Part shown: positions 1,653 through 59,122 of the stretch, piece after piece
Numbering within the stretch: the stretch's first letter is position 1
Layout: every line of letters starts with the position of its first letter
Virus record (IMG/VR): IMGVR_UViG_3300028591_000092
Coordinates: 107,662-171,661 of that record
Reading direction: 5' to 3' (one strand)
Source of the DNA: a virus
Lineage: Duplodnaviria; Heunggongvirae; Uroviricota; Caudoviricetes
DNA length: 64,000 nt
Notes under the pieces: generated by a model
What the model was told of the DNA's origin: nothing
What the model saw: the letters and a program-made list of their open reading frames with translations, nothing else
Databases searched by the model: none
Made by a program: the position numbers and the translations under genes

Positions 1653-2306
1653 TTATCGTCCACAATTACAAGAGTGAATAGGAGGACGTCTATACATTAA
1701 ACCTTCCTCACATTTAGAATTATTACCACAGCAAGATCCTTTACCTCTGCCATTAGAGGGACAATTACCAAAACAATTTCCAATAAGCTTGAAGTAGGCC
1801 TGTGCTGTATCAAGATCTTCTACAGCCATTGCTGCTGTATGCCCATAAAGAAGTAAATATTTTCTAATTACTTCATCAGGTATAAGATCCTCACAAGAAG
1901 TATCAGATTTTTCTTTCATAAAAAGATCATCCATCATACATCTATAAGCATAATTAACATCAGAACAAATTGCTGTACTTGTTAATTCATCTAAGTAATC
2001 TTCATTATTTATAGCCTTAAATGTTCCTATATATATAGCAGCAGTTGAAATTCCCAACTTATCAATTGGAAGTCTTACAACAAATCTTGTTTGATAAGAA
2101 TCTTCATCAGAATCAGTAGAATCGTCTACTGGAAACAAGGCTTGTGATAAATCATAAAACGATGATTTAAAATCATTTCCCTCTACAAATCGAACCTCTA
2201 ATTGCAAAGAGGTGAAATGAAATTCTTCCGGGCAACTAAATACCAAATCAAGATATTTGCTATCACCAGATATTCTAAATAAACTTATACTAATATTTTT
2301 ATTCAT
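1653..2306 (-). CDS. hypothetical protein with Cys-rich C-terminus (CxxC-type clusters)
   Basis: ORF track. C-terminal CCGNNSKCEEG...CNCG. Confidence 0.45.
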   Translation of the reverse strand: MNKNISISLFRISGDSKYLDLVFSCPEEFHFTSLQLEVRFVEGNDFKSSFYDLSQALFPVDDSTDSDEDSYQTRFVVRLPIDKLGISTAAIYIGTFKAINNEDYLDELTSTAICSDVNYAYRCMMDDLFMKEKSDTSCEDLIPDEVIRKYLLLYGHTAAMAVEDLDTAQAYFKLIGNCFGNCPSNGRGKGSCCGNNSKCEEGLMYRRPPIHSCNCGR

Positions 2307-2618
2307 CTTTCTTTTTCTTTTGTTTTGGTAATATAGAAATGCTGCCTCCTTTAAAAACAGAGGTAATTGAACTCAGTCCTAATAAAGAACATGCTGTAAT
2401 AATTAAAACCTATAATAATCCTTCAACACATTTGGAACCTCCTTCTGTTATTGTTAGATATATTATACATCCAAGTGCTACGAGCATGGCAATAGACCCA
2501 ACCAGTCTCTTGCTTGAGCCTATGCCATTCTCACTTAACATCTCTCTAAAAAATTCCTTTGAAGTTTTCATGTTTTTCTATCTTGAACTTCATCATTCTA
2601 CTTATTATTATCAAAAAG

Positions 2619-4778
2619 CTATGCCAGCTCAATTTGATTACGCTCTTTAACCAACTCAAGTTCTTTCTCTTTAGCCTCAGCCTTAGACTTAACATCATAC
2701 CACTTAATAGATTGCTCTGCAGTATTATTCTGTTGCTCGATAGCAAGTTTCTTCTCATTAAGTTGCTGAAGTTTCTTAGTATTAGCTTCAAGCTGTTGTT
2801 GCATTTTCTTGGCCTGATCTTGAGCCTGCTCTAATTGTTGAGTAAGTTGAGCAATTTGATTATTCTCAAGCTTCTTCTGCTTAATAGTCTTTCTAAGAGC
2901 TTCTTTCATTTCTGTCAAGCTCTTGCTTGTAGTAACATCAATAAGAATTTCAGGATCAACTTGATTGTTCTTAGCTAATTCAAGAGCCATTTGTTTAAGT
3001 AATTCCTGCTCTTTCATTATCTCTGTAGAATCAGCAAGATGTACATCATAATCAGTCTATGAATAGTATTCAGGCAAAGCTGTAAAGATTTCTTTTCTGT
3101 TGCCTAAAATTATTTGCCCTGTAAGACCTTTCTTATAAACTTTTCTTGCCAAATTTAATGCATCAGTAAGCATTTCTGCAACAAGAGTATCCATTACTTG
3201 ATAATATTGTTTAGTAATGATATAAGACTATTGCATTCCTGCTTCAACATTTGCCACAGCATCTCTCTGCTGAATACCGCCGAGTCTTTCTCTAAATACA
3301 CCAGTAATAGAGCTTGCTGTAGTTTCAACCATTTCAAGAGCTATTTGTACCGCCTATAAAGCACCGGGCTCAATCATGTCGTTATAACCATTAAATACTT
3401 GATTAATAACATCTCCTTCTTGAGAAGAATCAAATAAAGCCAAGCCAGATTTTCTATAAGCAAGATATTTCATAAGACGCTCTTCCATTTTATCTCCCAA
3501 CATTTCTGGAAGATGCGCTAAATCAACAATAGCACCTTTTGTACCGGAAAGAGCAATCATATTACTTTTAAAGTAATTTAAAAGATCAAAGTCGTCCTAT
3601 AATGAAGCTGTTTTTAGCATTAATGAATAAGGAGCGCCATGTCCATCGGTATAATACATTCCATTAATAGACAAAGTAACTTCATTAGGAGAATCCATGT
3701 CTCTAACAACATTATCGTCTTCGCCATCTAATATGTAAATATCAGATCCAATTCTAGTTACCTTATATCTTTGACCTTTTCTTTTCTTTCCGTCTTTGAT
3801 CCAATCAATCCATTCTACTTCGTAAACAGGAATTAAATCCCATTTACCATAGCGATTGTCGCTGTCAAACGTAACTCCAACACCATCAACAATACCAGGA
3901 TTGCTATAATCTCCATATCTAGCTCCACATGAAGTTATAAGAACATAATTTCTATTATCTTCATCATATACTTTAAGGTCGTCTAACTCATCAATATCTT
4001 TTTGAGTAAGATCATCTCCATATTTCATGATAATTTCTTCTTTAGTCATCCATTTTCTTACAACAGCTTTATATCCGTTTTTAAGATACTAGCTTTTAGG
4101 GTCTTTATCTACCCATGTATTTAAAGGATCTTCAATTTCAATTTGAAAATTCGTTCCAGCAGATGTTGGTATAACTTTATAATAAGCTTCTCCAGCGATT
4201 AATAGATCTAGTAAAATCTATTTTAATTTATTTTTAAAGTCAATTTTTCTTGATTGCAAAATATACTAAACTATGTTCTATCCAGCAATCTCGTAATTAG
4301 ATAGGAAGTTAATATCAACGGACTCCATTAAATCTTTAATCTCCTAATCTATAACAGGATCAATTGTTTTCTCTTCGCCAGGCTTTTTCCCAGCAAGAGC
4401 ATCATAGACGGCATTTGTGAGATATCTAGACACCCACTCTCTAATCTTAGAAGCTTTTTCAAGCTAGATATCCCTAAAAATGTTGGTTAGAGTTTTTTCA
4501 TCTTTACATGAAATCTTTGGTCTGATCTCTGTTGTTAAGAATTCACCAACAATTGCGTCTATGTGTTTTCTAATCAATGGAGTAAAGGAAATTGAAGTAG
4601 GATTTCCTATTCCATAATTTTTTTCAATATGTTCGTATTGATATTTATCTCTGATGGCATTATAATAATTATAAGCTTTAAACAGCCCTTCTTTTTCATG
4701 AACTAAATCGCCTATAACATAATCAGCCATCTCTACAAGATAATCGTCAGAACCTTTTTTACTTTTAGAAATTTCCAT
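2619..4778 (-). CDS. large structural protein, putative portal. One reading frame with at least 5 in-frame TAG codons; C-terminal coiled coil.
   Basis: ORFs 2619..3017, 3354..3560, 3597..4049 and 4464..4778 are all in the same frame. In-frame cta (TAG) at 3057, 3228, 3354, 3597 and 4089. Lies immediately downstream of terL in transcription order. Confidence 0.45.
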
Positions 4779-12189: not shown

Positions 12190-12558
12190 TTATTTAAATC
12201 TTTCAGTTAATCCTTCTGCAATAACCGCCTTCACGGCCTGTTCATTTACCATCCAATAGCAATTACCCATAAAAGGTACTGGAGTAAGTTGAAGAATATT
12301 TACTAATACATCATCTCCAGCATGTACATATTGACAATCAGGAGCAACTTCAATTACTTTTGCACATTCAATAGTAAGTTTCTTTTCTTCTACTTGACCA
12401 CTATCTGAATTAATAAAATCAGAGTTTAAATCAAGACCGTCTTCAGTTTGTTTGTTAAGATACGGATTTTCATCATAAACATCTACAATAATATTTTTGT
12501 AGATCGGTTTTAATTCTAAAGCATTATTCATAATCATTAAACATTTAATATTGTACAA
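12190..12558 (-). CDS. groS: GroES-like co-chaperonin (longer than canonical); real start probably at the internal MIMNN
   Basis: LKPIYKNIIVDV and the C-terminal AVKAVIAEG resemble GroES; lies immediately downstream of the groEL-like gene. Confidence 0.5.
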   Translation of the reverse strand: MYNIKCLMIMNNALELKPIYKNIIVDVYDENPYLNKQTEDGLDLNSDFINSDSGQVEEKKLTIECAKVIEVAPDCQYVHAGDDVLVNILQLTPVPFMGNCYWMVNEQAVKAVIAEGLTERFK

Positions 12559-14027
12559 TTTGTTGTTAATATAGTTGATGCTACCGAAATAGCATTTTCA
12601 ATTGTTGCTTTTACAACTAGATAAGGATCTATAATTCCTTCTTCGTAATAATTTCCAAAAGGACAACTCCAAAAATCAAAAGTTTGAAAACAATCTTTTT
12701 CTGTATGGTCGAGGCCATACACAATAGTGTTGCACACAGGATCTTTACCAGTTATCATTTTATATGGAGCCCTTAAAACATTTTCTAGTTTCATTTCTAA
12801 TGGGAATTCTCCAATTACTTTTGACAACGCCACACCACCTCCTGGCAGCACTCCACCATCCATAGCACATTTAGTAGCCATAATGGCGTCTTCAAATCTA
12901 TCACATCTTTCCTTCATTTCTATTTTAGAAAAACCACCAACATAAATAGTTGCCATTCCAGATGTAAAGTTTGCTAAACGCTTCTGATGAAATACTTCTT
13001 CGATTTCTGATAAAATAGAGTCTTTAAGAACATCTCTTATAGATTGAATTCTTGCTTCTAATTTATCAGAAGGATGATACCCTATAAATGTGGTAGAATC
13101 TTTTGTAATAACTACTTTTTCGCATTCAGAAGATTCTCCAAATAAAATTCTCATATCTTCTAACATAGTTTCCCTCATAACACCAAAGTTAGGGCTTACT
13201 ACTTCACAAGACATAAGCTTTTTAGAACCATCAGGATTAAACATATTCTTTGCAAGGAATAATGTTAATCCAGATTCAAATTCAGGAGCAATGAGCAGAA
13301 GGCTTTTGTGTTCTCTATAAGCTTTTCCTGCTATAGCTTCCATTTCTTTTCCCTCATCTAGCTTTGTATCAGATATGTAAATAATACAATTCTCTAATAC
13401 ACATTCGTTTTTACTTGTGTTTATAAAGTAAGGAGATTCGTAACCATTATCTATCTTAAATCCTTCCGTATATTCCACCCTATCCTTCACGTCCTCAGAT
13501 TCTTGATATGTTACTAAACCATCTTTCCCTACTTTATAAAAAGCCTCAGCAATAAGACCTCCAATAGTTGGATCATTATTTGCTGCAAGTGTGGCTACTT
13601 TTTTAATATCCTCTAAAGAAGATATGTCTTTTTTATGTTGTTTTAAATACCCAATAATCTCTTCACCCGCTTTTTTTAAATATCTAGATACTTTAATAGG
13701 GTCTGGATTATCTTTATACTGATTTATAATTTCATTTGCTAATATTGCTACAGTTGTAGAACCATCACCAACAGTCTTAGCCTGTTTAATAGACGCTTCT
13801 TTAATAACATCAATACCCATTTGTATATAAGGATCTGGATCATTTACAGAATCCATTACTGTAGCACCGTCTTTTGTGGATTTTAATAGTCCACCTTTTC
13901 TTATCATAACACATGAAGCATTTGGTCCAAAAGTTGTTTCAACAGCTTTCGTTGCCAAATTAGCTCCCTCAATAATTTTAGATCTAGCTTCAGATCCAAA
14001 TTTTACATTATCATATTCCATAACCAT
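12537..14027 (-). CDS. groL: GroEL/Cpn60-like chaperonin
   Basis: VKFGSEARSKIIEGANLATKAVETTFGP and DGSTTVAILA match GroEL N-terminal and ATP-binding motifs. 496 aa. Confidence 0.9.
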   Translation of the reverse strand: MVMEYDNVKFGSEARSKIIEGANLATKAVETTFGPNASCVMIRKGGLLKSTKDGATVMDSVNDPDPYIQMGIDVIKEASIKQAKTVGDGSTTVAILANEIINQYKDNPDPIKVSRYLKKAGEEIIGYLKQHKKDISSLEDIKKVATLAANNDPTIGGLIAEAFYKVGKDGLVTYQESEDVKDRVEYTEGFKIDNGYESPYFINTSKNECVLENCIIYISDTKLDEGKEMEAIAGKAYREHKSLLLIAPEFESGLTLFLAKNMFNPDGSKKLMSCEVVSPNFGVMRETMLEDMRILFGESSECEKVVITKDSTTFIGYHPSDKLEARIQSIRDVLKDSILSEIEEVFHQKRLANFTSGMATIYVGGFSKIEMKERCDRFEDAIMATKCAMDGGVLPGGGVALSKVIGEFPLEMKLENVLRAPYKMITGKDPVCNTIVYGLDHTEKDCFQTFDFWSCPFGNYYEEGIIDPYLVVKATIENAISVASTILTTNCTILNV

Positions 14028-17409: not shown

Positions 17410-17426
17410 ATTAAAAATATATTATT

Positions 17427-17504
17427 GGTTGCCCTCCAAGGATTCCAACCTTGCTCCCCTGATTTAGAGTCAGGTATAATCAATTGCAAATATACGAGAG
17501 GGCA
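17427..17504 (-). tRNA. amber suppressor tRNA (anticodon CTA, reads UAG); amino-acid identity not determinable by eye
   Basis: Reverse complement TGCCCTCTCGTATATTTGCAATTGATTATACCTGACTCTAAATCAGGGGAGCAAGGTTGGAATCCTTGGAGGGCAACC. 7-bp acceptor TGCCCTC/GAGGGCA; anticodon stem CCTGA/TCAGG with loop CTCTAAA (U33, CUA, A37); T-arm CAAGG-TTGGAAT-CCTTG. Confidence 0.7.
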
Positions 17505-23777: not shown

Positions 23778-24299
23778 ATGACGTGCCGTTTTAATAATGT
23801 GGTATCGTGTATTAATTTGTCAACACAGATGGCTCTCGTGAGCCTGATTACTGATGGCTTTATGCTCACCACGAGGAAATATCATGGCTGGGTAATTGAG
23901 GGCCCAGATGGGCAGGTTGTTAAACTGTCAAAAGGTCTTAGCCTATGGGCAGACGTGTTTAGGACTTGGAAGCCAGAAGTGTTGAGAGATCGGATAAAGC
24001 TCCGTCTTCGCGGGGCCGAGACACAACTGTGGTTCAGGGGATCGGACCAAATTCCTACTGGCCTTCCAGAAGTGAAGGTAATTAAAAGTAGTCCAACCTG
24101 GCTACAGCATCTAGCAGGGGCAGACTGCTCACTGCCGGCCCCAAAAGAGGGGCAAAGAATAATCTTTGGCACCCTCATATATGAGAGGTGTCTTCTCGTC
24201 GGTGGGGACACCGACAGATGGAAACTTATCGAGTTTCCGTCAGAGACTTTAGCCCGCATATGTTGTGGGGAAGTTGATAACTCGACCGAGCGAGTATAA
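23778..24299 (+). CDS. hypothetical protein in GC-rich island (antisense ORFs 23882..24328 and 23453..23713 are probably artefacts)
   Basis: 173-aa ORF; ~50% GC against a ~30% background. Confidence 0.4.
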   Translation: MTCRFNNVVSCINLSTQMALVSLITDGFMLTTRKYHGWVIEGPDGQVVKLSKGLSLWADVFRTWKPEVLRDRIKLRLRGAETQLWFRGSDQIPTGLPEVKVIKSSPTWLQHLAGADCSLPAPKEGQRIIFGTLIYERCLLVGGDTDRWKLIEFPSETLARICCGEVDNSTERV

Positions 24300-24394
24300 A
24301 TAGACTTTAGGCTCGGTGCGTTGCCCAATCAGAAATGGTTGGGCAGGTAGTATTAACTAAAGTGCGTTAAGGAGCGCACGTTAAACAATAAAAA

Positions 24395-30479: not shown

Positions 30480-31860
30480 ACCTAACGTTTGGAAGTTCGG
30501 ACATAAAACTTCAAAGAGGCGACGGTACAGACTTAGCTATTTGTTAAGTAGTCTCATAGACTGGTGATGAACTATTCCAGTCACTCTTTTCTCAATAACC
30601 GAAAGTGGGGGTCCTAAACATAAGTAGCGCTAAAATTATGAACAGGAGTATATAATGAAATACACGGAGAAAAGATTTTATTTTACTGCATAATAGTTCC
30701 GTAAGGACAAATCAGAGAGATACTACGTGCAGGTAATGGCTCTGATTTTTTTAATAGTGTTATTACTCCACTTAATAGAGTAATTAAAGTCCAATTCGGT
30801 CATAAGGACCACGAGAGATGATTGTCTAGGCTCTCACTTTTGACGGATGGAAAGACATCTAAGTTTAGTATTTTGAAAACAAAAGTACTCAGAATAATAC
30901 TCTGTGAAAGTATTTTTTTAAAATCAGAACGAATTGCAATAAGTTCTGATGGAGAGGTTGCAAACTCTCATGGATATGTAGTATAAAGGAGTACTCTGCT
31001 GGGCTAGTGGTTATAAATGCTGTACAAGCTACCAGACTACTCGGCGGCGGCGTAGGTTAGAATCCTACCATATCTTCTAAAATCCATCAAATGACACGAT
31101 GGTTGACTCCTATCAATAGAGTAGGTACAGGCTGTTATTAGAAGCCACACGTCCTCCCGTGAGTGTGAGGTGTCCCAAAGTTATTCTTTTACTGGCACAA
31201 AAGTTTTAGTCAAGAACAAAAAAAGACAATTTTGAGCATAGTCGTCTGATCAGGACTATGCCTTCTATCTAGAGTGATTCTCTAAGGTTGATTACCAATC
31301 ATCTGACACTTTAAAAGTAAGCCAATAGGGGAAACTTTGTCAAAGTTTTAATAGTTTACTGACGTAAGATCTCATCAATCGAAAACTATTTGTTAGTAAA
31401 TATGGTAGCTATTGAGTCGCTCTTAATAGTAGAGGTTCGATTCCTCTTTTACTTCTAAATCCAATTCTCACAATTGGTAGCAGGCTGTAATAGAAGCCAA
31501 GTTTATCACTATAATGCATAAAGTGACATCAAAGAGTTAGATGTAAAATAGGACTGGTCAACTCAAAAAAGATCTTGGGCATAATTGCTTGGTTGTAATT
31601 ATGCTTTCTAATTAGAAAATTTCTTAAAACTATGTACATAAGTTTAACATATCTATTGGGTTGGTTGTTGACTTAGTTTTAAGAGATACTTAAAAATCCA
31701 TTCTATGATACCATGTTTTCGTAGAATAAGTAAGTGACATGGCACAATGCAGTTTGGTGGATTCTGCTTATTTTAGATAATATAATATTGCCATATACAA
31801 CTTTGATAACCAATCAATTTTATATCTTCCCCTCCTAGAATCCGCTAGGAGGGGATAACC
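30480..31860 (+). ncRNA. ~1.4-kb ORF-free structured region with duplicated ~80-100-nt units (31055-31155 and 31425-31505), each holding a T-arm-like hairpin and a GGTA(G)CAGGCTGT.ATAGAAGCCA motif; group-I-like AAGTCCAATTC at 30787
   Basis: No ORF of 60 aa or more on either strand. GTAGGTTAGAATCCTAC and GAGGTTCGATTCCTC hairpins. AAGTCCAATTC is shared with the tRNA-Leu intron at 43985. Confidence 0.35.
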
Positions 31861-43373: not shown

Positions 43374-43627
43374 AAACGATACGAGAAATAGTAACATATT
43401 TGCTTGTTTTTATATCTATTGCAATTATACTTTATTGCATTAGTGGATGTAGTAATTCTTATGAAGAATATACAGTTAAATCTAATGGTACTTATATTGA
43501 AACTATTAGATTTAATTTTGGACAAGGTCAAGTTGTTGTAAAGGAATATACAGCTCCTAATGGAAAAACATTTTATATTTTTAAGAGTCTTTCTTCTGGA
43601 GATATAGATGTTATCTCTGCTGATTAG
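43370..43627 (+). CDS. small lipoprotein (lipobox ISGC)
   Basis: ORF track. Confidence 0.45.
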   Translation: MKTIREIVTYLLVFISIAIILYCISGCSNSYEEYTVKSNGTYIETIRFNFGQGQVVVKEYTAPNGKTFYIFKSLSSGDIDVISAD

Positions 43628-43633
43628 CAGATT

Positions 43634-44235
43634 GCCACCTTGGCGGAATTGGCAGACGCGAAGGACTTAATTATTAATTTGAGTGCACTGAGGGAAACCT
43701 TAGATGTAGAACCTCCCTAATTCGGTGGAAGCTAAGTTAGAATAAAAAAGAAAGTGTAGGTTTTGAGGAAGATTTCACGAGTCTCCGGACAATCCCGTAT
43801 CCTCTCTAAGTTTTTCCTTTTCTAATATGCTAATACCGAGCCAATGTTAAGATAGCGGAATGGGCTTGCTCTTACTTGAAATAATAGTAATGAGATTGTA
43901 GTGCCGTGAAAATAGACAGTGTGTAGAGACTATACAGGAGGAACCTAAGTTGAAATAAATTTAGTATGGAGTATTATGACCCACAAGTCCAATTCTTTGA
44001 AGGATTGCTTATGAATGGGATAAGAGCATAAAGCATTGCATCGAAACATACGCTTGCAAGATTTTAATATGGTTTAGATAGAGTCCAGACTACAACAAAT
44101 AGGTGTAGGTTCGTTGCCTACAGATTAAGTTCGTAATAACTTGCAGACGAAATCTATTTGGCTATGGAAACATAGAGTAGTAAGAAAATCCTTTGGCCCG
44201 AAGGGGCTATCCCGGTTCGATCCCGGGAGGTGGTA
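43634..44235 (+). tRNA. tRNA-Leu(UAA) interrupted after U34 by a ~516-nt group-I-like intron. Exons 43634..43668 and 44185..44235; intron 43669..44184.
   Basis: 5' exon GCCACCT-TG-GCG-GAATTGGCAGA-CGC-G-AAGGA-CTT and 3' exon AAAA-TCCTT-TGGCCCGAAGGGGCTAT-CCCGG-TTCGATC-CCGGG-AGGTGGT-A. Exon ends in U; intron ends in G; GAGT near the intron start can pair with ACTT of the exon (P1 with a U-G pair). Confidence 0.6.
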
Positions 44236-46007: not shown

Positions 46008-46119
46008 GGTCCTTTCGTCTAATAAGAGTATGAGACCTTCGCAGTTCGATCTGGATCATACTGGAATAGGACATATAATCGCTCGGTTATAGATGCAAGT
46101 TCGATTCTTGCAGGGACTA
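46008..46119 (+). ncRNA. tRNA-Glu-derived tRNA-like RNA (candidate Y-RNA-like). Acceptor-like GGTCCTT/AGGGACT, ~48-nt D-loop insertion, stem TATAA/TTATA closing a conserved 8-nt loop TCGCTCGG, T-arm GCAAG-TTCGATT-CTTGC.
   Basis: See finding. No CCA; discriminator A. Confidence 0.5.
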
Positions 46120-47581: not shown

Positions 47582-49273
47582 ATGACAAAAATTAATTCAA
47601 GAAATGCACAATTAAAAAGTGCTTTAGGTGCTATGGCTCCTAAGGAAAGAGTTAAAGAAGTTTTAAATATTCCAAAAGAAGATACTAAGAACCGTCAAGG
47701 TTTTGCAGCATATTCTTTGCCGGAAGAACTTCGTTTAATTAGCATGCTTAACACTCTTAAGGTACAGGAACAATTTTATCGTACCGAAAATAAGCAAATG
47801 CAAGAACTTAGAGATCTTATTGAACGTATAGGATTTAAAGATCCTTATTTTGTAGCTCAGTGTATTAAATACTCTCGATGCATGGGCGAAGGCATGCGTG
47901 ATATTAATAATATTGCTGCAGCTTTATTAGCTCCTTTTGCCTCTGGCCAAGAATGGGCAAAACGTTTCTATAGTCTGTATAATAAGAAAACACAGCTTGG
48001 TGGTTGCATTTTCCGTGCAGATGATATGAATGCAATTAAAACAGTATTTTCTGCTTTAAATACTCCTAAGCTTTCAGCCGCAATGAAAGTTGGTTTTCGT
48101 AATACTTTGGAAGCTCTTGATGCATATCAGTTAGCTAAGTATGCAAAGACAACTCGTGATATTGCAAATCTTGTTCATCCTAATCCTGAGAAATCTAAAG
48201 CAGTTATAACTTTAACTGGTAAAGATCGAGATAAATTTCTTGATGGAAAAGGTTATGATGAAAGTGCTTCTGAAATTACAGTAAAAGTGCTTGATGCTAT
48301 TATGTCCGGTATTACTGTTTCAGCAGATACTTGGGAAGTAGCAAATTCAGAAGCAGGTCAAGAAGTTGCTAAAGCTGTTAAAGCTGGCAAAATTACTGCA
48401 GAAGAAGGTAAAAAGATTTTAGCACAAGCTAAAGATCAGAATTTCCAAGATCTTCTTAAAGAAGGAAAACTTGGTGTTCTTGCTGCTTTGCGTAATATTC
48501 GTCAGATTTTACAATATTCAGATCAGAAAACTGTAGATTTGTTATGTGCTCTTCTTTCCAATCCTGAAAAGATTCGTCAAGGAAAGATCATGCCTTATCA
48601 AATTGATATTGCATATGAAGTATTAAATACTGAATTTCGTTCTTACGATAAGTATACACAAGTTCGTGATGCTTTAGTTCGTGGTTATGAAACTTCTGTC
48701 CCTAATTTAGCTGAAGCTCTTCCTGGAAAGACTTTAGTTATTTTAGATTGTTCTGGTTCAATGTCTGCATTTCTTTATGATTCTGCAAATAAACGTCGTT
48801 TGTATTCTAGTTGTCTTGATAAAGCCTCTTTGATTGCTGCTACTATTGCTAAAGCAACTGGGGCTGATGTTATTCGTTTTGGATCAAGAGCAGAATGGAC
48901 AAGCTACAACAAGAATCATACTGTATTTGATATTGCACAACAATTTGCTGCATCTCGTATGGGATGCACTTATTTGAATTATGCTTGGGATCTTGCTCGT
49001 GTAAGTCATAAAGATTATGATCGAGTAATTATTCTCTCGGATAATGAGTGCAACTCAATGCAAAGAGTGTCAACTTCTTATAAGCAGTATGTGCACGACG
49101 TATGCTCACCATATGTTTATTGTTGTGATATGGCAGCTTATGGAACTACTCCACTTGCAGGCGATAAAGTTAATTATTATTGTGGCTATGGCTATAAGTT
49201 ATTTGACGATATTGCAAGTAACGAGTTTAACCCAATGCAACACATTGAGAAAATAAGAAAGGTAGTCATTTGA
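47582..49273 (+). CDS. Ro60/Rsr-like protein: alpha-helical TROVE-like N-terminal ~370 aa plus C-terminal vWA domain with MIDAS motif
   Basis: 563 aa. VILDCSGSMS (DxSGS MIDAS). Size and architecture match Ro60/Rsr. Surrounded by tRNA-like RNA genes. Confidence 0.6.
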   Translation: MTKINSRNAQLKSALGAMAPKERVKEVLNIPKEDTKNRQGFAAYSLPEELRLISMLNTLKVQEQFYRTENKQMQELRDLIERIGFKDPYFVAQCIKYSRCMGEGMRDINNIAAALLAPFASGQEWAKRFYSLYNKKTQLGGCIFRADDMNAIKTVFSALNTPKLSAAMKVGFRNTLEALDAYQLAKYAKTTRDIANLVHPNPEKSKAVITLTGKDRDKFLDGKGYDESASEITVKVLDAIMSGITVSADTWEVANSEAGQEVAKAVKAGKITAEEGKKILAQAKDQNFQDLLKEGKLGVLAALRNIRQILQYSDQKTVDLLCALLSNPEKIRQGKIMPYQIDIAYEVLNTEFRSYDKYTQVRDALVRGYETSVPNLAEALPGKTLVILDCSGSMSAFLYDSANKRRLYSSCLDKASLIAATIAKATGADVIRFGSRAEWTSYNKNHTVFDIAQQFAASRMGCTYLNYAWDLARVSHKDYDRVIILSDNECNSMQRVSTSYKQYVHDVCSPYVYCCDMAAYGTTPLAGDKVNYYCGYGYKLFDDIASNEFNPMQHIEKIRKVVI

Positions 49274-49326: not shown

Positions 49327-49440
49327 TTTGGTCTGCTAAACCGGCGGTCACTGGTTCGAGTCCAGTATATATTATAATATATTAGCTCAGTTGGTAGAGC
49401 GCCTTTTGTTTTATGTGAATTACGTTTTCTATGTCAATTA
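49327..49440 (+). ncRNA. unresolved tRNA-like module. A 3' half (anticodon-arm-like GGTCTGCTAAACC, T-arm ACTGG-TTCGAGT-CCAGT, ATATATT-A) is followed within 2 nt by a 5' half (AATATAT-TA-GCTC-AGTTGGTA-GAGC); the two acceptor strands are complementary to each other.
   Basis: Seen in sequence. Could be a permuted/circularising tRNA-like RNA or two split genes. Confidence 0.3.
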
Positions 49441-56874: not shown

Positions 56875-56899
56875 AGGGCTTATTTTATTTGGGCCGTAG

Positions 56900-57214
56900 A
56901 GGAATTGATTCACATGTTAGCTATTATAAGACAGCAGAGTGATGACTTAATCATCAAAACAAAAATAAATGGCAGATCTTATTCTACCTATAGAATGGCT
57001 GCGTAAGCCATTTCTCTGGTTGTTGAGTAACCAAGGAACATAATACTCATAGTTGGTTTCTTTGTTTAGTAAAACAAAGTGGTGGAGGTAGCGAGTCGAA
57101 TAGACCAGTTACCCCGTGATAAGCAACACGTAAAAAAGCAAGCTGTATAGTTCTTATAAAAAGCGGTGGAGAAGACTGGAGTTCGAATCTCCAACGGTCC
57201 ACAATTAATTGAAA
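56900..57214 (+). ncRNA. possible ~315-nt tRNA-like or intron-containing RNA. 5' GGGCCGT pairs with 3' ACGGTCC flanking T-arm TGGAG-TTCGAAT-CTCCA.
   Basis: Seen in sequence; internal structure unresolved. Confidence 0.3.
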
Positions 57215-58789: not shown

Positions 58790-58866
58790 GACTATTCGTT
58801 CGTAGAACAATGGAAGTTCACCAGAATTTAATAGTCTGGAGATTGTGGTTCGAATCCACACGAATG
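58790..58866 (+). ncRNA. tRNA-like element with stem CCAGA/TCTGG closing a 9-nt loop ATTTAATAG; T-arm TGTGG-TTCGAAT-CCACA
   Basis: Seen in sequence; D-arm not resolvable. Confidence 0.3.
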
Positions 58867-59122
58867 TCAACTTGTTACTTGAGTTGGTCACTAGGAGAGT
58901 AACAGCCCTTGGACAAAGACCAATGTCACGAAGGGAGTGGTGAGAGAGGAATACATAACACCCTGAAAGATGCGGTTTCTCCAAACAGGTACCAAAAGTG
59001 GACACGATGCCCTCCTTAAAGCCTGTTTTATTATACCTTCAAGTTTTGCACTCTAATGTGTGCTATAATGGCATGTCTGTATGATCGGTGATACTTTGTA
59101 TTAGAAACCTTTGAAGGTTTAT

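Follow-up and report, generated by a model that had tools for sequence, protein, structure and literature searches.

The intron of the tRNA-Leu(UAA) gene is the textbook ancient bacterial group I intron, and how far its inheritance was vertical and how far horizontal has been debated for decades. Its subgroup, IC3, has a crystal-structure model in the intron of Azoarcus, which combines a compact core with two GAAA tetraloop contacts (L2-P8 and L9-P5). A recent bacterial survey collected 333 tRNA group I introns from 18 phyla, 81% of them belonging to subgroup IC, with tRNA-Leu 34/35 as a common site and Bacteroidota tRNA-Leu(UAA) genes included; phage genomes lay outside its coverage (PMC13011429, mSystems 2026). 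A 2014 review placed all phage introns described to that date in protein-coding genes, despite the many tRNA genes that phages carry (PMC3984707). The Lak megaphage paper describes phage tRNA introns as previously unreported and its own examples, found with tRNAscan in eukaryote mode, as “enigmatic” (PMC6784885). Our literature search, which covered subscription journals thinly, turned up no phage tRNA gene described as carrying a group I intron. Here, we analyzed a 64,000-nucleotide stretch of viral DNA (IMG/VR record IMGVR_UViG_3300028591_000092, positions 107,662 to 171,661; hereafter the window, numbered from its first letter) in which an earlier note, made from the sequence alone, had pointed to a tRNA-Leu(UAA) gene at 43634-44235 split by a group I-like intron. 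We conclude, with a probability of roughly 0.85, that a large phage with AT-rich DNA has here a tRNA-Leu(UAA) gene that is functional and is interrupted by a group I intron, IC3-like and of the tRNA-Leu type. This kind of intron is known, and the window copy is an expanded, mosaic member of it in an apparently unreported phage tRNA setting.

Joined in silico, the two exons give an 86-nt class-II tRNA, in agreement with the canonical tRNA that had been predicted from the split gene. ARAGORN calls it tRNA-Leu(taa): its D stem has 3 bp and its variable arm is long, a T arm is present, G1 is paired with U72, and the base at position 73 is A. In intron mode, the same program reads the unspliced DNA as tRNA-Leu(taa) with i(36,516), i.e., a 516-nt intron at position 36. 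The insert of about 516 nt noted after U34 could be fixed at exactly 516 nt (43669-44184), beginning with AATTATTAATTTGAGTGC and ending with ...GAGTAGTAAG. Only one pair of boundaries fits the rules that the exon ends in U and the intron in G, and it restores the expected anticodon loop, CUUAAAA (CTTAAAA in the DNA). The insertion thus falls between U34 and A35, which is indeed the site of the cyanobacterial and plastid tRNA-Leu intron, and the anticodon stem is made by both exons. CCA is not encoded by the gene, the bases after the 3′ exon being CTAA. The G+C content is 37% in the intron, 59% in the exons, and 32% in the window. UUA and UUG make up 41% and 14% of the leucine codons in 56 plus-strand open reading frames (ORFs) of the window, together 55%; since these two codons dominate, the interrupted tRNA should be the one that the phage needs most for leucine. 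At a separate locus, 58796-58868 (+), ARAGORN calls an intron-less “tRNA-Leu(taa)” of class I, 73 nt long, to which the Rfam tRNA model gives no match. The anticodon region, CCAGA-ATTTAATAG-TCTGG, has an oversized loop, and an alternative reading gives the anticodon UUA, that of an ochre suppressor.

The features by which the earlier note had recognized a group I intron were all recovered. The exon ends in U and the intron in G, and GAGU (43681-43684) pairs as P1 with the exon ACUU (43665-43668), including U43668·G43681. The expected core is present as well, with P3, P4, P6, P7, P8, and P9 in place, compensatory changes in two alignments, and nested helices recovered by RNAalifold. In a 771-nt search, the Rfam model Intron_gpI (RF00028) aligns with 43659-44108, from P1 to P9, at 30.6 bits (E = 8e-6). 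The four exon-side P1 pairs are invariant in all relatives of both alignments (39/39 and 26/26), and in a tRNA-Arg(UCU) copy of the same intron family the exon ends in UUCU and the guide reads GGAU instead of GAGU, the matched change that P1 pairing predicts. AAUUUGAG and the AAAA of the 3′ exon are conserved family-wide, and the intron-terminal G is kept in aligned relatives. Two G-C pairs of P7, G43926-C44086 and G43928-C44085, are invariant in 26/26 sequences, and the latter is probably the guanosine-binding pair. When the window was threaded on the family structure, 46 of the 54 pairs formed; the misses are the outermost P2 pair, the replaced tips of P6a and P9a, and the oppositions C43717·A43936, C43842·U43920, and A43932·G44081.

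The family structure, from P1 to P9b with the P3/P7 pseudoknot, was drawn by hand on 39 short and medium forms aligned with MAFFT. Standard pairs fill 95.1% of its cells, compared to 77.6% in shuffled controls and 28 to 42% when the 3′ partners were slid by 1 to 3 columns. Two-sided changes occur at 35/54 pairs and are fullest in P2 (7/7), P3 (6/6), P6a (4/4), and P9b (5/5). A second alignment comprised the core segments of 26 sequences, among them the window and 12 long forms; here, 95.7% of the cells are paired (33 to 37% in slid controls), with two-sided changes at 20/39 pairs, including all six of P3 and all five of P9b. P7 covaries at three to four pairs. The stem formed between the exons (columns 1 to 4 with 180 to 183) covaries as well. 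Run without a supplied structure, RNAalifold recovers the exon-exon anticodon stem, P1, P2, P3, P4, P6, P8, P9, and P9b.

The window intron is no one-off and belongs to a large family that is also found in bacterial chromosomes. We assembled 59 distinct interrupted tRNA-Leu genes, including that of the window; the 58 others, all with a homologous intron at the same site, come from Agrobacterium phage Atu_ph07, the 735-kb uncultured phage LR756501, IMG/VR and metagenome contigs, and bacterial genomes. A sensitive BLAST search against phage records matched only the 5′ exon and P1-P3, in Atu_ph07 and LR756501, both times in unannotated DNA; the Atu_ph07 paper does not mention introns, and its record has no annotation at the site. 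In Atu_ph07, an isolated 490-kb jumbo phage cultivable on A. tumefaciens C58, tRNA-Leu(taa) (MF403008, 112890-113251, minus strand) is split at the same position by a 278-nt intron, and in LR756501 by one of 205 nt. The three introns align across their cores, with compensatory changes visible in P2 and P3. IMG/VR viral contigs were scanned with the pattern GGACTT-N5-12-ATTTGAGTG, which joins the exon end to the guide sequence, and 35/120 pattern loci are real interrupted tRNA(UAA) genes, with introns of 191 to 213 nt and one of 1160 nt. The same pattern, applied to one bacterial genome per species, yielded 12 interrupted tRNA-Leu(UAA) genes among 120 loci (introns of 218 to 336 nt, with the same P1 motif and core); the eight record titles examined are all from Bacteroidota (Saprospiraceae, Bacteroidia, Emticicia, and unclassified Bacteroidota). 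Most of the 240 matches to this short P1 pattern are due to chance. Long forms, with introns of 357 to 899 nt, were retrieved from 7 viral and 33 metagenome contigs with the pattern ATTTGAGTGC-N26-38-AATTCGGTGGAA. The G1·U72 pair also occurs in many long-form phage copies and in Bacteroidota chromosomal copies, a weak hint of a Bacteroidota-associated lineage. The 1160-nt relative (L084; IMGVR_UViG_3300028591_000131, 2100-3344) has the same expanded layout and carries a LAGLIDADG-like ORF (…GMMIGDSYL…AFWYMDDGS…) between P7 and the P3 3′ strand, a position unusual for homing endonuclease genes. Mobility driven by an endonuclease thus occurs in the family, with the window copy lacking such an ORF.

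Searches around the window locus itself returned little. A look-up of the downstream protein gave only the source contig, a 164.5-kb metagenome contig of which the window is an identical part, and an identical 1.5-kb fragment, and hence no intron-less allele; 20 kb of the window, compared by megablast with the phage collection, matched nothing; and a flanking 164-aa ORF, used to find relatives of the window phage, led to one distant locus without the tRNA. The coordinates of the gene and its intron are collected in Table 1.

Table 1. Features of the interrupted tRNA-Leu(UAA) gene and predicted helices of its intron
Feature	Position	Strand	Description
tRNA-Leu(UAA) 5′ exon	43634-43668	+	35 nt, GCCACCTTGGCGGAATTGGCAGACGCGAAGGACTT; acceptor, 3-bp D stem with loop, anticodon stem 5′ strand, C32 U33 U34; layout by sequence reading GCCACCU-UG-GCG-…-CGC-G-AAGGA-CUU; basis, sequence reading and ARAGORN on spliced and unspliced forms
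Group I intron	43669-44184	+	516 nt; IC3-like core, four peripheral extensions, no ORF; basis, Rfam, family covariation, and threading
P1	43665-43670/43679-43684	+	Exon ACUU plus intron AA with UUGAGU; 5′ splice site after U43668, paired with G43681
P10 guide	43678-43680	+	UUU; potential 3-bp pairing with A44185-A44187 after the first splicing step
P2 hairpin	43688-43703	+	CUGAGG/CCUUAG (43688-43693/43698-43703); GAAA tetraloop L2, 43694-43697; no P2.1
P3 5′ strand	43712-43716	+	CCUCC; partner 43937-43941
P3 3′ strand	43937-43941	+	GGAGG; closes the P3/P7 pseudoknot
P4	43721-43727/43834-43840	+	J4/5 GA, J5/4 AA
P5 base	43730-43732/43829-43831	+	Encloses the P5 extension; P4-P5 region, 43721-43840
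P5 extension	43733-43828	+	96 nt; structure putative
P6 with extension	43841-43921	+	C43841-G43921; C43842-G43919 with U43920 bulged
P6 extension	43843-43918	+	Structure putative
P7 5′ strand	43926-43934	+	GAGACUAUA; G43926-C44086, A43927 bulged
P7 3′ strand	44079-44086	+	UAGAGUCC; G43928…A43934 with U44079…C44085
P8	43943-44073	+	Base ACC/GGU (43943-43945/44071-44073), then helix GUUGAAAU/AUUUUAAU, then extension
11-nt GAAA-tetraloop receptor	43944-43949/44068-44072	+	CCUAAG/UAUGG in P8; canonical
P8 extension	43957-44060	+	Structure putative
P9 three-way junction	44090-44180	+	P9 CUAC/GUAG (44090-44093 with 44177-44180), P9a, P9b
P9a, extended	44096-44160	+	P9a extension
P9b	44162-44166/44171-44175	+	CUAUG/CAUAG; GAAA loop, 44167-44170
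Omega-G	44184	+	Terminal intron G; 3′ splice site directly after
tRNA-Leu(UAA) 3′ exon	44185-44235	+	51 nt, AAAATCCTT...GGAGGTGGTA; A35 A36 A37 A38, anticodon stem 3′ strand, long variable arm, T arm, acceptor 3′ strand, A73; layout AAAA-UCCUU, long variable arm, T arm, AGGUGGU, A73

Several observations weigh against a functional group I intron at this site, and the first of them concern detection. The Rfam score of 30.6 bits, from the model that the earlier note had proposed as a check, does not reach the curated gathering score of 50. The match was absent from Rfam scans of the whole window, both at the gathering score and at permissive settings, and Rfam gave no match at E ≤ 0.1 for the Atu_ph07 and LR756501 loci. 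Introns are nevertheless plain at these two loci, both on inspection and from covariation. The model has low sensitivity for this intron family, and its gathering score is a detection threshold, not a structural criterion. Other observations concern the structure. C43717 stands opposite A43936 at the inner end of P3, a mismatch common to the relatives L247, L251, L260, and L271, and P6 is weak (a C-G pair plus C43842·U43920, or a bulge). Both peculiarities are common to four or five independent relatives and are therefore subgroup traits. A43932·G44081 in P7 is the sole nonstandard cell at that pair among the 26 sequences, the others having A-U, U-A, or G-C. Its neighbors on both sides are Watson-Crick pairs, and the G-binding pair lies at a distance of four pairs; we regard the mismatch as tolerable, yet as the one real blemish. 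The P5, P6, and P8 extensions fold no more stably than their shuffles (z = -0.25, -0.66, and +0.16, respectively), and their structure is for that reason only putative. The P5 and P9 extensions of the window lie beyond covariation testing, because no close whole-intron relative was found.

Taken at face value, such irregularities could mark a decayed, splicing-dead intron, with the tRNA-Leu(UAA) gene left as a pseudogene after the loss of an endonuclease and the accumulation of insertions. The P7 mismatch unique to the window, the weak P6 and the C·A at the inner end of P3, the three of four extensions without fold stability beyond shuffles, the lack of an ORF in the intron, and the second, intron-less ARAGORN call with a TAA anticodon at 58796-58868 can all be read in this way. 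We nonetheless consider decay quite improbable, given that the catalytic core, both GNRA loops, the 11-nt receptor, the omega-G, the U·G pair, and P10 are all intact, that the P3 and P6 traits recur in independent relatives, that the exons still give a flawless tRNA, and that UUA is the commonest leucine codon; the call at 58796, for its part, lacks support from the Rfam tRNA model and has an aberrant loop. The intact, covariation-supported core points to an intron that should be competent to splice.

The earlier note had also remarked on the size of the intron, twice the usual, and this holds at 516 nt versus 191 to 213 nt in the short-form relatives and 249 nt in the cyanobacterial intron. 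About 300 extra nucleotides sit at four hairpin tips, in P5, P6, P8, and P9, outside the catalytic core. The P9 domain is more stable than its shuffles (z = -3.0, with 0/200 shuffles as stable). The 82-nt P6 module (43841-43922) is about 95% identical to those of L247 and L260; among its four differences, three are compensatory, turning GCGG/CCGU into GUGG/CCAC, with a G/A pair also swapped across an internal loop. The interior of P8, about 105 nt, is 100% identical to that of L251 and L253, compared to only 76% identity to the window across their exons and P1-P3; the P5, P6, and P9 modules of these two are unrelated to those of the window. The P2 and the P5 base of the window are like those of the short forms; its P3, P6, P7, and P8 are like those of the long forms. 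Because near-identical P6 and P8 modules occur in otherwise divergent introns, the window intron is a recombinant mosaic, in which at least these two extensions have passed as modules between it and other family members. The window P5 and P9 extensions showed no similarity among the retrieved sequences, and exact-word searches of viral contigs left the P4-P5 junction, the P5 extension, and the P9 extension unmatched. The compact IC3 architecture (P2 without P2.1, no P5abc, about 200 to 300 nt) is found in the short-form relatives, at 191 to 278 nt, whereas the window intron, with its 516 nt, its 96-nt P5 extension, and its P6, P8, and P9 extensions, is an expanded derivative and an atypical member.

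As the earlier note had stated, the intron holds no long ORF: the longest stop-free run under code 11 is 42 codons, the ORFs listed inside it encode 34 aa (minus strand) and 32 aa (plus strand), and no homing endonuclease ORF was found in it, none exceeding 42 codons under that code. When TAG is read as sense, a 141-codon frame opens on the minus strand at 43624-44049, with a stop-free run of 135 codons, and the insert might then be, or contain, an antisense coding gene. The gene caller run on the source contig (ENA ERZ27256846 k141_3103349) did call this frame, and the window shows signs of TAG recoding. Even so, such a gene is very hard to credit. The frame runs opposite the tRNA 5′ exon and the conserved ribozyme core, contains five in-frame TAG codons, and matches neither Pfam nor PHROG families, even at E ≤ 1; spanning modules of different origin (P5 unique, P6 in common with L247, P8 with L251), it is not conservable as a unit. 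Antisense to the ribozyme core, with its five TAGs and no family match, the frame was rejected as an artefact, whether as a homing endonuclease or as any other gene.

Introns of the same family were also seen outside tRNA-Leu(UAA). They interrupt tRNA-Arg(UCU), tRNA-Ser(UGA), tRNA-Lys(UUU), and tRNA-Leu(UAG) genes in large phage-like contigs (L244, 644-1287 and 2621-3233; L247, 2150-2455; L256, 4510-5132; L260, 4119-4561; L271, 1529-2141), and one 334-kb viral contig has at least two such interrupted non-Leu(UAA) tRNA genes. In L273 (Ga0256871_1088469), two intron copies stand head to tail, about 10 nt apart (…GTGGTAAG-TTTTAGATTA-ATTTGAGTGC…). The 5′ part of the intron lies outside recognizable tRNA genes in L246, L265, and L280, perhaps in protein-coding genes. 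In seven IMG/VR loci (L014, L017, L044, L049, L104, L108, and L120), the short-form intron sits in class-I-shaped UAA tRNAs without a long variable arm.

By analogy with the pre-tRNA introns of Anabaena and Azoarcus, splicing of the window intron could proceed as follows. The pre-tRNA would be transcribed from the plus strand, and the intron would fold into its P4-P6 and P3-P9 domains, clamped together by insertion of the L2 GAAA loop into the 11-nt receptor of P8, while the GAAA loop of L9b would dock elsewhere (its counterpart in Azoarcus, the L9 GAAA loop, docks on P5). Free guanosine, bound at G43928-C44085 in P7, would attack the bond after U43668, which P1 offers as a U·G wobble. G44184 would then occupy the G site, with P10 and the exon-exon anticodon stem holding the 3′ exon, and ligation of the exons would produce the anticodon loop CUUAAAA. 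End-trimming and CCA addition would complete a tRNA predicted to read UUA and UUG.

The intron might instead be non-autonomous, needing a maturase or an RNA chaperone from the phage or its host, so that the supply of tRNA-Leu would be conditional. Many large group I introns are protein-dependent in vivo, and the AT-richness of this one (37% GC), the low predicted stability of its peripheral domains, and a neighborhood with much RNA biology (a Ro60-like protein and a Y-RNA-like RNA, along with a pistol ribozyme and a tRNA methyltransferase-like ORF) would fit such a dependence. The same core, however, is found in the short-form relatives and in the cyanobacterial intron, which self-splices and served as a positive control in the bacterial survey (PMC13011429), and no maturase-like ORF lies within or adjoining the intron; we therefore see protein dependence as an unlikely alternative to an autonomous group I intron, though a less remote one than decay.

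That the gene lies in a phage, as first noted, is supported by more than 20 tRNA genes in the window, by matches to PHROG families for a GroEL-like and a Ro60-like protein, by signs of stop recoding, and by the homologous introns of Atu_ph07 and LR756501. Phage origin thus seems well founded on the number of tRNAs, the PHROG matches, a suppressor tRNA together with TAG-sense ORFs, and the occurrence of the intron in bona fide phages. The suppressor tRNA, at 17426-17504 (-), has the anticodon CUA. When TAG is taken as sense, ORFs of at least 300 codons rise from 2 to 8, and the source-contig gene caller read through the TAG at 43625, which suggests partial TAG recoding in the window.

Other features of the window were recorded in passing. 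A GroEL-like chaperonin is encoded at 12537-14027 (-) (PHROG 5725, E = 2.5e-96; Pfam Cpn60_TCP1). The Ro60-like ORF at 47582-49273 (+) matches PHROG 850, “RNA-binding protein” (E = 1.6e-28), with the Pfam Ro60 vWA domain below cutoff, and a Y-RNA-like (YrlA) match follows 65 nt downstream at 49338-49411 (+), scoring 41 bits against a gathering score of 69; the two together look like a phage-borne Ro60/Y-RNA module. A full-length pistol self-cleaving ribozyme lies at 24280-24352 (+) (Rfam, 68.2 bits versus a gathering score of 34.5). A tmRNA-like match of full model length at 56891-57204 (+) stays below its gathering score (27.4 bits versus 47; E = 3e-7), and ARAGORN in intron mode instead calls tRNA-Leu(aag) with a 213-nt insert there. 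Over-long tRNA-like matches were found at 30972-31076, 46008-46119, and 31315-31455 (+); Rfam gives tRNA matches 105 nt long at 39.3 bits and 112 nt long at 27.9 bits, the second just under the gathering score of 29. ARAGORN in intron mode gives 49- and 55-nt inserts at such loci, in models that look poor; these may be short non-group-I insertions akin to the “enigmatic” Lak tRNA introns.

Close relatives of this intron reside in phage tRNA genes, including one of the cultivable Atu_ph07, and provide a concrete vector for the horizontal spread of the tRNA-Leu intron. Introns in phage tRNA genes also contradict the 2014 statement that phage group I introns occur only in protein-coding genes (PMC3984707). 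Such genes escape standard tRNA finders as well as Rfam at the curated threshold, so that inventories of phage tRNAs, and codon-usage arguments built on them, are incomplete. The long, ORF-less mosaic variants indicate that peripheral ribozyme domains are exchanged as modules, and natural variants both compact and expanded could be of practical interest for circular-RNA production, in which the Anabaena permuted intron-exon system is used. A far-reaching and, in our view, rather doubtful extension would be that large phages harbor unrecognized, diverse, and recombining group I introns colonizing the anticodon loops of Leu-UAA, Leu-UAG, Arg-UCU, Ser-UGA, and Lys-UUU, that phages carry the tRNA-Leu intron, usually taken to be ancient and vertically inherited, between bacterial phyla, and that the intron, being more than a neutral parasite, could gate the supply of a heavily used tRNA or shield the anticodon loop from host anticodon nucleases until it is spliced. 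With Atu_ph07 in culture, the family is directly testable.

The nearest described counterpart, the cyanobacterial and plastid tRNA-Leu(UAA) IC3 intron, interrupts the same tRNA at the same 34/35 site and, like the window intron, has a short P1 with a U·G pair and an anticodon stem formed between exons; like the family at large, it has a P2 with a GNRA loop and no P2.1. The two have core motifs of P4-P6 and P3-P8 in common (…GAGCCAAG…, …GUGYAGAGACU…GAC…, and …AGUCC…), as well as a P9 three-way junction that ends in a …GYAGCGAAAGCU… hairpin. On the family structure, a provisional 249-nt version of the Anabaena intron sequence forms 46/54 pairs at 50 to 61% identity. The window copy differs in its phage host, its length (516 versus 249 nt), its extensions in P5, P6, P8, and P9, its guide (UUUGAGU versus AUUGAG), and a perfect 11-nt receptor in P8. 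Introns longer than 500 bp in the bacterial survey all carried homing endonuclease genes, to which the ORF-less 516-nt intron is an exception, and the survey's Bacteroidota tRNA-Leu(UAA) introns have their likeness in the 12 bacterial genes retrieved here, with the same P1 motif and core (PMC13011429). The G1·U72 pair is likewise common to phage and Bacteroidota tRNA-Leu genes.

Compared to the window, the Azoarcus pre-tRNA-Ile(CAU) IC3 intron sits in a different tRNA at a different position, measures about 205 nt, and has no peripheral extensions; the window has GAAA loops in L2 and L9b and a P8 receptor, which would make corresponding contacts. The classical phage group I introns (T4 td, nrdB, and sunY; Twort; SPO1 DNA polymerase) are phage-borne as well, and some have homing endonucleases, as does L084, but they belong to subgroup IA and interrupt protein-coding genes. 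The Lak introns resemble that of the window: they, too, lie in tRNA genes, and their hosts, gut phages, are very large, with AT-rich genomes and an alternative code. The account of them in the Lak paper names no ribozyme class (PMC6784885), whereas the window element has a group I ribozyme fold. A group I intron at tRNA-Leu 34/35 is in itself unsurprising; new, in relation to these systems, are its location in a phage, the size of an overlooked family, its presence in several tRNA species, and the exchange of modules.

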